Of a DNA stretch of 64,000 bases, positions 41,246 through 52,295 are shown one piece after another (within the stretch, counting starts at the first letter, position 1; every line of letters begins with the position of its first letter). The stretch spans positions 27,561-91,560 of the IMG/VR virus record IMGVR_UViG_3300023174_000110. The stretch is one strand, 5' to 3'. The translations under genes were made by a program, and so were the position numbers. The stretch comes from a virus. The notes beneath the pieces were generated by a model. That model searched no databases and was not told where the DNA came from. It was given only the letters and a program-made list of their open reading frames with translations.

Positions 41246-41908
41246 TTATGATATCCATACACAAGGTGAGTGGGTTGTTGATGATATATATGAAATTGCA
41301 ACTACACCGGCAAAACCACCTTGGTTTATACTTGATCCTCCACGTCCAGCAACACCTGCTACTGGACTTTTAATTACTAAACCATTAGATATTGGTGGAA
41401 ATGGAACAGAACCATTGCCAGGATTTGGTGTTCCTGGCATATTTTGCGGCGGCTCTGGATAATCTTCATAAATTTGATATGGAGGACCACTAACAGTATT
41501 CGTCCAACGAGCAACTCCTGGTCCACCTCGACTAGCACTTATTATAGTATCGCCTGTGCTTCTATAAATGCCGGAGTTTCCTCCGTATTGACCAACAAAA
41601 TTAAAATTGTCAAAATAATTATATCTGTTACCTTGTATGATGACCGTTCTCAAAAATCCTTCACCAATACCTCCAGAACCACCACTGCCTACTGAAATAG
41701 TCAATTGGTCACCAGGTCTAAGCTGGTTGGTATTAAATACATAATTATAACCACCTGCATATCCAGGTCTGGTAATCCGAAAAGCCCCACCATTTACAAA
41801 CCAACTCGTGCAGCCTCCTCCACCACCATAAACTTCAATAATATTTTGATTCGTCCAATCGTTGGGGACCGTCCAGGTTCTACCTGTAGTAAAAAGTAGT
41901 TCTACCAT
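41246..41908 (-). CDS. Glycine-rich domain protein (fibre-tip type)
   Basis: FTT...WTVP...IEVYGGGGG...GG, ISVGSGG.GG, G..G.V.I.Y. Confidence 0.6.
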   Translation of the reverse strand: MVELLFTTGRTWTVPNDWTNQNIIEVYGGGGGCTSWFVNGGAFRITRPGYAGGYNYVFNTNQLRPGDQLTISVGSGGSGGIGEGFLRTVIIQGNRYNYFDNFNFVGQYGGNSGIYRSTGDTIISASRGGPGVARWTNTVSGPPYQIYEDYPEPPQNMPGTPNPGNGSVPFPPISNGLVIKSPVAGVAGRGGSSINQGGFAGVVAISYISSTTHSPCVWIS

Positions 41909-41912
41909 TATA

Positions 41913-42521
41913 TTAGGAAAAACCTAATGTTACCACTAAAACAGTATTTGATGTTTGTAAATTCAATGATTGAACAGAGATATACAAAGCATTTCCTGTG
42001 TTAGCTACATTATTAACTCCAATTTGAGCAGGTTGAAAAACACCTAAAGTTGAAACAGGGATATTTAATAAACCACCAACAAAATTTGATCCATTGAATG
42101 CGGTAACTGTTGCAGTTCCTAATCCATTAACAATTCTTGCTGATAAGTATTGTACTGTTAAATTTCTTGGAGAATAATTAGTAAAATAATATGTATTTGC
42201 AACCGCTATTCCAGTAATATTTAATGTGGCTGTGGTGTTTGCAAATGGTCCTGTTGAACCAATGGGTCCTGTAGCACCAGTAGAACCTATTGGTCCTTGA
42301 ATGCCTGTAGCACCAGTCGTACCTATAACACCCGTTGCACCGGTAGAACCCGTGGTACCTGTAAGACCAATTGGTCCTGTTGCGCCGGTTGTTCCTATCA
42401 CACCAGTAGCACCAGTAGAACCTACTAGGCCTTGAACACCTGTAGCACCAGTTGAACCAATTGGGCCTGTGGCACCTCGGCCTAATCCACTATTTGCAAG
42501 CTCACTTTGTTTTAATGGCAT
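41913..42521 (-). CDS. Short collagen-like protein with C-terminal beta domain
   Basis: About 25 consecutive Gly-X-Y triplets. Confidence 0.85.
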
Positions 42522-42526
42522 ATTCT

Positions 42527-50700: not shown

Positions 50701-51095
50701 GTTCCTGTTGCTCCTTGTGGTCCTTGAATACCCGTAGCACCAGTTAATCCTGTTGAGCCTTGAGGACCAGGAATTCCAATTGGGCCGGTTGCACCGGTTG
50801 TACCAAGTTGTCCTGTGGCACCTGTGGCACCAATTACACCAGTCGCACCTGTAGGACCTCCTGAAGGACCTGTTGAACCTTGTGGACCGGTTGCGCCTGT
50901 GGCACCTAGTCCAGTAGCACCTTGAATACCTGTTGCACCTTGAGTTCCTGTGGCACCTTGGACACCTGTTGAACCTGTAGCTCCAGGATTTGAACCGAGC
51001 GGCCCAATCCATGCGCCATTAGCAGCAATCACCCGAGTGTTGCCAACAGTTAGCCCATTTTTTACTACGAAAAAATTATTTGCATCACAGCTCAA
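46857..51095 (-). CDS. Collagen-like fibre (1412 aa, TTG start)
   Basis: FVVKNGL N-terminus; long GXY runs; T4 gp34-like insert (TVTLPASP...NGQTIEG...LVY...W); C-terminal DGG repeats. Confidence 0.85.
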
Positions 51096-51134
51096 GGTTC
51101 ACTATCCCCTTTGATTTAAAACATACTTCTATAA

Positions 51135-52295
51135 CTAACTATTTAGTTTAATGACTTGGGGCAAATCATGAGGATAATTTTTCTTTAACCAATTCAATTG
51201 AGGTCTTGCATCATTTCTTTCATACCAACCATTACCTGTATAAACATTTAACACAGATTGAAAATATTCCTCATACATTTTGCCAACTTTTTCTAATGTA
51301 AAGTTTTCTGCAAAAGCACGACAGTTCTTAGGATTAATATTGTGGATGTTTTTTGCAGCCCACAAAAATTGTTCAAAAGTTCTGCAACGATAACCAGTAA
51401 TTCCGTGAATGTTGTTTTCAGTAAATGATCCCCAATCAGTTGTGATTGTAGGAGTTCCAGAGAACAACATTTCTACTTGAACCCCACCAAAAGGTTCAAC
51501 ATACATTGATGGCACAAATGCCGCTTTTGCGCCAGACATTAATTTTCTTCTCATCTCAACATCAGCATAACCAATTTCTGTTACATGAGAAGGTATTTCT
51601 TTATAACCCATTTGAGTCAATGAATTTTGGCCAGCAATAATTAATTTTGCACCTATAGCTTCAGTTGCTTGAACCGCAACATTAACGCCTTTACCATCAT
51701 ACACACGACCCAAAAATAAAAAATAATCTTCTTTTTTTTCTTGGAATGTAAAATCATCAGGATCAAAATAGTTTGGAATTACAGCATCATACCAATCTTG
51801 TTTACAAGAACCAACAGCTGTCATTCCATAATAAGCATGATAGATTGCATATGATTCAAAAATTTTCCAACGAGCCCAATGACCACCAGCATATCCAATT
51901 CCTGGTTCAACACAAATTAAATCAGGATGTGCATCGCAGACAGGTCTTACACCAGAACCCCAAAAAGGAAGAATAAAATCGTGTTTTTGTTTTCTTAGAC
52001 CAACTTCACGAATGGCATTTTTATAAAATGTTTGATAAGCATGGTCATTAACATCAAACTTATAGAAGTTTTTACGCCAATCATAGTCACCGTAAGCAAT
52101 TTCTAAATCTTTATTGGTGGTTACTGTGACGTGTTCATCACAAACTAAATTTGAATCTTCATGGCCATAATGTATAATGGTGTGCCCTAAAGCTTTCATC
52201 ATTTTACCAAACTTGACTACTTTTTGTGTGTAAGCACAAGCGTTGTATTCTTTTGAAGAAACTGTATGTGGTAAACCTAAAATATGAAAACGCAT
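51135..52295 (-). CDS. Glycosyltransferase, GT4/GT-B (Glycos_transf_1-like)
   Basis: VIPN..D, LFLGR...KG, PS..EPFG...VE....GTP.I.TD.G.F.E (EX7E motif). Confidence 0.9.
   Translation of the reverse strand: MRFHILGLPHTVSSKEYNACAYTQKVVKFGKMMKALGHTIIHYGHEDSNLVCDEHVTVTTNKDLEIAYGDYDWRKNFYKFDVNDHAYQTFYKNAIREVGLRKQKHDFILPFWGSGVRPVCDAHPDLICVEPGIGYAGGHWARWKIFESYAIYHAYYGMTAVGSCKQDWYDAVIPNYFDPDDFTFQEKKEDYFLFLGRVYDGKGVNVAVQATEAIGAKLIIAGQNSLTQMGYKEIPSHVTEIGYADVEMRRKLMSGAKAAFVPSMYVEPFGGVQVEMLFSGTPTITTDWGSFTENNIHGITGYRCRTFEQFLWAAKNIHNINPKNCRAFAENFTLEKVGKMYEEYFQSVLNVYTGNGWYERNDARPQLNWLKKNYPHDLPQVIKLNS
51140..51146 (-). promoter_or_regulatory. Late promoter variant CTAAATA upstream of the collagen genes
   Basis: At the 3' end of the glycosyltransferase gene. 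Confidence 0.55.

Follow-up and report, generated by a model that had tools for sequence, protein, structure and literature searches.

Why should a tailed phage carry a glycosyltransferase gene directly in front of the genes for its collagen-like fibres? This question is raised by a stretch of 64,000 nucleotides from the IMG/VR virus record IMGVR_UViG_3300023174_000110 (positions 27,561 to 91,560; hereafter the window), which stems from a 91.5-kb contig of approximately 55% completeness. The phage is an uncultured freshwater T4-like myovirus that is related to Pelagibacter and Methylophilales myophages. A sequence-only reading of the window had pointed to a block of approximately 11 kb between the gp5 region and gp25, which encodes a GT4-type glycosyltransferase (GT), three collagen-like proteins and a Gly-rich protein, and had proposed that the phage glycosylates its own fibres. 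The block could be confirmed with all five genes on the minus strand (Table 1), and we regard the proposed function as plausible and partly supported by the recurrent linkage between homologues of the GT and collagen genes in other phages. In our judgement, the chances that the GT glycosylates the phage's own collagen-like fibres are about even.

An intact glycosyltransferase in front of the collagen genes

The GT clearly exceeds the cut-offs of two Pfam families (PF00534, 55.7 bits with a cut-off of 26.4; PF13692, 44.4 bits with a cut-off of 27) and matches phrog_3408 with an E-value of 4.5e-196. Its AlphaFold2 (AF2) model (pLDDT 91, pTM 0.89) displays the GT-B fold with two Rossmann domains. 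Comparison with folds in the Protein Data Bank (PDB) resulted in at least 500 matches at E <= 0.001, and the approximately 50 listed were all GT-B enzymes, mostly of the GT4 type, with a top TM score of 0.73/0.82. The best PDB neighbours comprise TeGSS (7fg9/8x3q), tetrahydrobiopterin (BH4) glucosyltransferases, AviGT4, BshA, MshA and PimA. In an alignment with 25 homologues down to 42% identity, E267 was at least 90% conserved and E275 invariant (E267-x7-E275), and the pairs G196-R197 and K202-G203 were conserved as well. We take these residues to be the catalytic and donor-binding motifs of GT4 enzymes, the EX7E motif being typical of the retaining ones. Judged from the motifs and the model, the protein very probably transfers sugar from a nucleotide sugar as an active enzyme, whereas its acceptor cannot be read from the fold.

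The gene is closely packed with its neighbours on one strand. Only 22 nt separate it from orf461, the gene at the upstream edge of the island, its stop codon lies 39 nt before the start of colA, and colA, colB and colC are arranged head to tail behind it. Shine-Dalgarno-like sequences are found before both the GT, where AGGTGA lies 9 nt ahead of the ATG, and colA. At least three studies contributed freshwater and lake metagenomes with near-identical DNA. The GT-colA junction is no assembly artefact, because an independent freshwater metagenome contig, spanning orf461, the GT and the start of colA, also contains it. Furthermore, 18 near-identical loci share the conserved N-terminus of ColA immediately behind the GT. 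In a single metatranscriptome library from fresh water, in which DNA may be present, two 151-nt contigs were identical to the GT (51709-51859 and 51980-52130); these are too little to call expression and are no evidence of timing.

The GT is part of a large family. In a word-indexed search, approximately 5,900 proteins (representatives of clusters at 90% identity) matched at E<=0.001, and at 50% identity approximately 6,000 clusters had an E-value below 0.001. Many members are fused to S-adenosylmethionine (SAM) methyltransferase, GT2, GT25, GT32-like, HtrL or TPR modules. When a distant homologue (P0239) was used as probe of viral contigs, no pattern match was obtained.

Collagen-like fibre proteins with threonine-rich triplets

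ColA, ColB and ColC together contain 640 Gly-X-Y triplets, counted in runs of four or more, with mainly Ala, Pro and Ser at X and with runs of up to 89 triplets. This content is far beyond chance, because composition-matched shuffles reach at most 52, 36 and 5 triplets for ColA, ColB and ColC, respectively, compared to 344, 270 and 26 observed. The commonest triplets are GAT (157), GST (108), GPI (43), GNT (38), GPT (31), GPQ (30) and GLT (26). The triplets with Thr at Y that had been listed as dominant from the sequence alone do dominate, but GPI, GPQ and GIQ were omitted from that list. In ColC, 62% of the triplets have Thr at Y, and the corresponding values for the two large proteins are given in Table 1. 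Besides colA, colB and colC, no further collagen-like open reading frame (ORF) was found in the window. The collagen genes also yield long spurious Pro/Val-rich antisense ORFs (44043-44675 and other plus-strand ORFs) and repeated hairpin-like matches (45935-45956, 46355-46376), which are by-products of the triplet repeats and neither genes nor terminators.

ColA consists of 22 collagen segments, three non-collagen inserts and a C-terminal tail of approximately 40 non-collagen residues (46857-46980) with two Asp-Gly-Gly motifs. ColB begins with an Mtd_N-type N-terminal cap (PF18454, E 7.7e-12; 46727-46843), which is followed by five collagen segments separated by non-collagen inserts. Three of these inserts are copies of an approximately 87-aa knob, marked by DRYHT at residues 196, 590 and 943, and one further copy of the knob is found in ColA. 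A triple helix extends approximately 0.29 nm per residue; by this measure, the collagen part of ColA would be roughly 300 nm long and that of ColB roughly 230 nm, and the two proteins may be joined end to end as one fibre of 500 nm or more.

Behind its collagen part, ColB contains an Asn/Thr/Ala-rich repeat region and then a C-terminal head, for which Foldseek returned C1QL1/3 (TM 0.82), the NC1 domain of collagen VIII and the C-terminal domain of F-BclA (9h38). This C1q/TNF-like head, which is trimeric in C1q, collagen VIII and BclA, represents the flanking trimerisation domain, and such a domain was identified in ColB alone among the three collagen-like proteins. The head has 5815 homologues at E<=0.001 (word-indexed search), which occur as stand-alone small or fused proteins; a sequence search against the PDB gave nothing. 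It was not found in the loci of phages with a 95-97% identical GT, which have other sequence at this place. Because it is missing from such close relatives, the head is probably a swapped receptor-binding tip on a conserved collagen stalk.

ColC is conserved after ColB in relatives, and the Gly-rich protein is conserved before gp25 in three loci (L005, L007, L047). The latter had been called tip-like from the sequence alone. Its Gly-richness is evident, and its tip-like nature is no more than a supported lead: no Pfam or PHROG match was obtained, and the ESM Atlas placed it with PF21722 Gly_rich_2 tail-fibre tip clusters (score 0.94, TM 0.66), with structural TM scores of 0.61-0.68 to tail-fibre proteins. 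Pfam searches at E-values up to 5 gave nothing useful for the ColB head, the knob or the Gly-rich protein.

Linkage between the glycosyltransferase family and collagen genes

The proposed function turns on the question whether homologous GTs are linked to genes for Gly-X-Thr collagens in other phages. Among 80 loci with a GT of 74-97% identity to that of the window (set A), a collagen ORF was found within 10 kb in 45 and directly adjacent in 34. In 80 loci of a divergent branch with 36-45% identity (set B), the numbers were 57 within 8 kb and 31 directly adjacent, and the GT ORF typically begins 0-17 nt after a giant collagen gene. The 160 GT loci were clustered at 90% identity and those with at least two genes on each side were kept, which resulted in 45 clusters. 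A collagen gene was present in the locus in 64% of them and directly adjacent to the GT in 38%, compared to an expectation of 12% when a non-collagen gene is drawn at random from these loci, i.e. approximately three times the expectation. Hence, homologous GTs are indeed linked to collagen genes, and the proposal withstood the check that the sequence-only reading had named as a possible refutation, namely a lack of linkage to Gly-X-Thr genes.

The same picture emerged from whole records, in which collagen genes were counted by PF01391 searches with a positive control. Collagen genes occur in 6 of 6 GT-carrying records and in 2 (P-SSM2 and S-CRM01) of 18 complete genomes without the GT, comprising 15 cyanomyoviruses, two pelagimyophages and the Methylophilales phage Melnitz (one-sided Fisher test, p approximately 2e-4, uncorrected for phylogeny). 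In the Synechococcus phage ACG-2014f, the sole collagen gene in 228 kb is located approximately 1 kb from the GT. Among the other four GT-carrying whole records, a collagen gene was found within 2.6-6 kb of the GT in three and at the closest approximately 28 kb away in one, a 193-kb contig.

Insertion and probable mobility of the island

Related loci were collected with the C-terminal ORF of the gp5 pair as anchor. Approximately 40 of them have no island and have gp5 followed by a short gene resembling orf461 and then by gp25 and gp6, the distance from gp5 to the start of gp25 being approximately 0.9 kb. In the window, the block of approximately 11 kb that separates orf461 from gp25 is an insertion. 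At this position, the GT-collagen block was found only in the window's own clade, defined by gp5 identities of 94% or more. Members of the sister clade (77-79% gp5 identity) have either two small collagen ORFs without GT between gp5 and gp25 or nothing. In the sister-clade contigs L110 and L111 this interval is empty, and the GT lies elsewhere (L022, L025), again directly before collagen ORFs. The collagen ORFs of L022 and L025 have 95-97% Thr at Y, with a 2-oxoglutarate (2OG) oxygenase gene of family PF13640 upstream of the GT and T4 neck genes downstream. All in all, the pair of GT and collagen gene was found at three different genome positions.

No isolated phage matched the island in a megablast search. 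At the protein level, the window GT is 72-74% identical to the GTs of the cultured Synechococcus phages ACG-2014f and S-CAM7, where the gene lies between gp5 and a giant fibre gene, beside Thr-rich collagen genes and a 2OG oxygenase gene. In contrast, the baseplate protein gp6 of the window (38680-40749) shows 40-41% identity to the Pelagibacter phages HTVC008M and Mosig and the Methylophilales phage Melnitz (closest) and only approximately 38% to cyanophage gp6 (best listed match ACG-2014e), while gp6 of the GT-carrying ACG-2014f and S-CAM7 was not among the gp6 matches listed. The large difference between the GT and gp6 in their identity to cyanophage proteins points to horizontal transfer of the GT among phage lineages that infect different hosts.

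Candidate acceptor residues

The three collagen-like proteins contain 585 Thr, 234 Ser and 11 Lys residues (Lys: 1, 9 and 1 in ColA, ColB and ColC), and no PF13640 2OG oxygenase was found on the 91.5-kb contig, which is approximately 55% complete. With Lys almost absent and the contig lacking a 2OG oxygenase, a modified triple helix would have to carry its sugar on Thr or Ser. Collagen glycosylation of the hydroxylysine type was considered and rejected on account of the few Lys residues. Collagens neighbouring the GT in the window's GT clade are generally Thr-rich at Y (fractions mostly 0.42-0.97). The collagens of the GT-less S-CRM01 are Gln-rich with 4-6% Thr, and those of P-SSM2 have 17-30% Thr.

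The divergent branch occurs in a conserved cassette at the T4 'wac' position (L192:762-15723 and approximately 30 similar loci, L182-L244), in which a giant Gly-Pro-Gln collagen of up to 2095 aa is followed by the GT4 gene, an unassigned 254-aa ORF, DUF6445, GT2, an unannotated ORF, the neck genes gp13/14 and gp15 and two more collagen genes. The collagens of this cassette may be neck or collar whiskers.

A PF13640 2OG-Fe(II) oxygenase of the prolyl-hydroxylase type ('PiuC') adjoins the GT in ACG-2014f, S-CAM7 and approximately 17 metagenomic loci (for example L001:13073-13666, L002:13978-14574, L036:3455-4144 and L057:9214-9849). P-SSM2 has a syntenic piuC, annotated as 'ferrochelatase', after collagen genes without this GT. 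In another group (L031-L041 and L080; e.g. L068:2294-3148), a papain-family cysteine protease (PF00112) and a ConA-like lectin protein precede the GT, which is followed by a methyltransferase, an ORF without assignment and a second gene of the GT1 family. Together, these genes resemble an operon for glycan synthesis next to giant fibre ORFs.

Comparison with known systems

Among known systems, the SgtA-BclA3 pair of Clostridioides difficile comes closest as a working analogue: the gene for SgtA lies immediately upstream of bclA3, and in vitro the enzyme attaches O-GlcNAc to the Thr residues of GPT collagen repeats (PMC7157674). As in that pair, the GT gene of the window lies directly upstream (39 nt) of a gene for a Gly-X-Thr-rich collagen (57-69% Thr at Y in the two large proteins), and ColB resembles BclA in its combination of a collagen stalk with a C1q/TNF-like C-terminal head, whose fold matches F-BclA (9h38). 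However, SgtA is a GT-A enzyme with TPR repeats (PMC7157674), whereas the phage enzyme is a GT-B/GT4 protein without TPR; it is thus an analogue of SgtA and not a homologue, and the phage pair would resemble the BclA3-type system without belonging to it. Moreover, BclA3 belongs to the spore exosporium, whereas the phage fibres would be virion components that are 5-10 times longer and interrupted by knobs.

Covalent glycans on virion proteins of tailed phages, as we propose for the fibres, have also been described for the mycobacteriophages Che8 and Rita, for which capsid glycans are reported (PMC11256854). There, the targets are major capsid proteins instead of collagen-like fibres, and the hosts are actinobacteria. 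Mimivirus encodes collagen-like proteins together with the enzymes for their glycosylation (L230, R699) (PMC9546862, PMC12279948). Like the animal system (LH3/PLOD3, COLGALT1), it works with Lys at Y, a 2OG-Fe(II) lysyl hydroxylase and transferases of the GT-A type, whereas the window collagens are nearly free of Lys, the contig is without 2OG oxygenase and the enzyme belongs to GT4. The nearest solved structures of the GT are two cyanobacterial GT4 enzymes, the glucosylsucrose synthase TeGSS (7fg9/8x3q) and the UDP-glucose:tetrahydrobiopterin glucosyltransferase BGluT (5zer/9v0l), with E-values of 1.5e-17 and 1e-8 and TM scores of 0.71-0.73 by query. They share the GT-B fold and only 15-20% identity with the phage enzyme; unlike it, they are chromosomal metabolic enzymes with small-molecule acceptors and have no link to structural genes.

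Weighing the possible targets

According to our preferred reading, the island would be a mobile cassette of fibres and their modifying enzyme within the late structural operon. The cytoplasmic GT4 enzyme would use a nucleotide sugar for the O-glycosylation of the collagen-like fibres before or during virion assembly, most likely at the hydroxyls of Thr (and Ser) at Y of Gly-X-Y. ColB would end in its C1q-like head, with ColC and the Gly-rich tip protein following, and the benefit could be helix stability, shielding against proteases or grazers, or adhesion.

Several points weigh against fibre glycosylation. Approximately 36% of the GT lineages have no collagen ORF within 8-10 kb, i.e. the linkage is not obligatory, and the distance of approximately 28 kb in the 193-kb contig mentioned above fits poorly as well. 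At 70% identity, the GT sample consists of only three deep lineages, hence the number of independent linkage events is small. No protein O-glycosyltransferase was found among the top structural matches of the GT, and the nearest solved structures, at 15-20% identity, use sucrose, tetrahydrobiopterin, malate or inositol phosphate as acceptors. GT relatives are usually located among, or fused to, more GTs and methyltransferases, which fits polysaccharide synthesis too. The Gly-Pro-Gln collagens beside the divergent branch have only 8-25% Thr at Y, such that the GT family is linked to collagen fibres more broadly than to Thr at this position. Furthermore, Thr often occupies Y in the collagens of bacteria and phages at large, and recombinant BclA without glycans still forms a triple helix.

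Alternatively, the GT may modify a surface glycan of the host during infection, for example the lipopolysaccharide (LPS) core, the O-chain or another envelope polysaccharide, in order to block superinfection or to stop the re-adsorption of progeny. The gene would then travel with fibre genes, with receptor-binding and receptor-modifying functions co-varying in the hypervariable fibre region. This is the published interpretation of the fibre-region GTs of pelagimyophages (PMC7029224) and of cyanomyovirus GTs (PMC12801897), and it agrees with the PHROGs category 'moron, auxiliary metabolic gene and host takeover', with relatives beside or fused to GT2, GT17, GT25, HtrL and methyltransferase domains that are typical of polysaccharide assembly, and with the many loci that have the GT without a collagen gene. 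However, the enrichment is specific to collagen neighbours and persists when the pair changes its genome position, and reference phages without the GT are mostly without collagen genes. The contig stretch examined contains a single GT, with no sugar-nucleotide or flippase genes beside it, and for a strictly lytic phage that expresses the enzyme from a late operon, the time for remodelling envelope glycans after their export is probably short. The adjacency to collagen genes in particular and the co-occurrence are less well explained by modification of the host surface, which we consider unlikely. A target within the virion other than triple-helical Thr appears rather improbable to us, given that direct adjacency is enriched for collagen ORFs in particular and that collagens beside the GT of the window's clade are unusually Thr-rich at Y, with up to 97%. 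Candidates for such a target are the knob inserts, orf461, the Asn/Thr-rich repeat region of ColB, the Gly-rich tip and other fibre proteins of the operon. They gain some weight from collagen-free loci, in which the GT still stands beside giant fibre-like ORFs (1300-2300 aa) and lectin-like proteins, from the Thr-poor collagens of the divergent branch, from the position of orf461 (34% Thr+Asn+Ser) directly before the GT, and from the mycobacteriophage glycans, which are on capsid proteins and not on collagen (PMC11256854).

It is very unlikely that the GT is an auxiliary metabolic enzyme, placed in a plastic part of the genome, that acts on a small molecule to form a glucosylated sugar or a pterin glycoside. 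Its best matches are indeed TeGSS (E 1.5e-17, TM 0.73/0.82) and tetrahydrobiopterin glucosyltransferases (PMC9909042), and aquatic T4-like phages scatter metabolic genes among structural genes; but the identity to these enzymes is only 15-20%, and the steady placement within blocks of fibre and neck genes, the collagen linkage and the fusions to GTs, methyltransferases and TPR repeats would be unexpected for solute synthesis. Glycosylation of modified bases in the phage DNA, finally, seems highly improbable. This possibility had been dismissed in the sequence-only reading because of the place of the gene in a late structural operon. The dismissal stands, but not for this reason, because DNA glycosyltransferases of the same fold also act late: GT-B enzymes with the same PDB neighbours (7fg9, 5ze7, 3mbo, 6kih) have been proposed or shown to glycosylate 5-hydroxycytosine DNA in RB69, DLP3 and RL38J1, with transfer late in infection (PMC13326640). 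DNA glycosylation is unlikely because no ThyA-type (PF00303) synthase for 5-hydroxymethylcytosine, 5-hydroxymethyluracil or 5-hydroxycytosine was found in the two complete carrier genomes, ACG-2014f and S-CAM7, or on the 91.5-kb contig, whose incompleteness makes the absence there weak when taken alone. Positive controls were matched in these searches, and among five records PF00303 gave one match, a canonical-looking thymidylate synthase far from the GT.

Flanking genes and regulatory signals

Below approximately 58.3 kb, nearly all large ORFs of the window are located on the minus strand, and the operon has the order gp27-like gene, gp5-like gene (two ORFs), orf461, GT, colA, colB, colC, Gly-rich gene, gp25 and gp6. 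The gp5-like pair is syntenic with the annotated gp5 of ACG-2014f and S-CAM7. The N-terminal part of orf461 corresponds to the conserved short gene between gp5 and gp25 in island-free relatives, and tblastn found orf461-like matches directly after the second gp5 ORF (gp5b) in approximately 50 loci. Pfam searches at E-values up to 5 gave nothing useful for the gp27-like ORF and orf461.

A core of the T4-type late promoter, TATAAATA, stands at the head of the long structural operon. With 5 occurrences compared to 9 expected, the motif shows no overall enrichment, such that this copy is suggestive by its position only. A scan for TATAAATA revealed no private promoter for the GT, no convincing minus-strand terminator was found between the core and the island, and scans for sigma70 promoters and terminators remained at background level. 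Elsewhere in the window, two overlapping TATAAATA cores (10032-10045, minus strand) are located inside the 3' end of a 188-aa ORF (9967-10533), approximately 300 nt upstream of a 653-aa gene starting at 9732, and a further core (17122-17129) precedes a 592-aa gene of a fibre region.

Table 1. Positions in the window of the GT-collagen island, its flanking genes and the putative late-promoter core
Feature	Position	Strand	Evidence
GT4-type (GT-B, retaining-type) glycosyltransferase, 386 aa, apparently intact	51135..52295	-	PF00534, PF13692, phrog_3408
colA, 1412-aa collagen-like fibre protein	46857..51095	-	344 triplets, 57% Thr at Y; PF01391 E 1e-120
colB, 1442-aa collagen-like fibre protein	42527..46855	-	270 triplets, 69% Thr at Y; PF01391 E 4e-115
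C1q/TNF-like jelly-roll head of colB (last 153 aa)	42530..42988	-	AF2 pLDDT 87.7; Foldseek
colC, 202 aa, one 26-triplet collagen segment and a C-terminal domain of approximately 110 aa	41913..42521	-	PF01391 E 2e-13
Gly-rich 220-aa protein (18% Gly), probable Gly_rich_2-type fibre tip/adhesin module	41246..41908	-	ESM Atlas
gp25 baseplate wedge, downstream flank	40751..41143	-	PF04965 42.6 bits; phrog_261 E 1.6e-40
orf461, Thr/Asn/Ser-rich, upstream island edge	52318..53703	-	no family match (Pfam, PHROG)
gp5-like baseplate hub/spike, two ORFs, upstream flank	53705..55383	-	sub-threshold Gp5_OB, Phage_base_V, Gp5_trimer_C and Gp5_C matches
T4-type late-promoter core TATAAATA, head of the structural operon containing the island	58380..58387	-	just upstream of first gene

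Implications for phage biology

A literature search found no paper that describes glycosylated collagen-like fibres in tailed phages. To our knowledge, virion glycosylation in tailed phages is documented only for virion proteins of mycobacteriophages; phage-encoded GTs reportedly carry it out, and the targets are said to include tail-tube proteins. Likewise, we know of collagen glycosylation by virus-encoded enzymes only in giant viruses. Conceivably, the O-glycosylation of collagen-like fibres in aquatic T4-like phages is the dedicated task of a very large family of phage GT4 enzymes that moves horizontally, a generalisation that we are slightly inclined to doubt.

If fibre glycosylation holds true, the window's clade would possess a Thr-linked 'glyco-collagen' without hydroxyproline or hydroxylysine, and such a Thr-glycosylated, proline-poor collagen would represent a natural design for stable recombinant collagens. 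GTs of fibre regions that are now read as modifiers of host LPS or DNA (PMC7029224, PMC12801897) would then need re-annotation. Moreover, adsorption, host range, resistance to proteases and the decay of particles in lakes and oceans could be influenced by fibre glycans, which would represent a hidden variable in the range of hosts, the stability of virions and their decay for abundant phages of fresh water and the sea.

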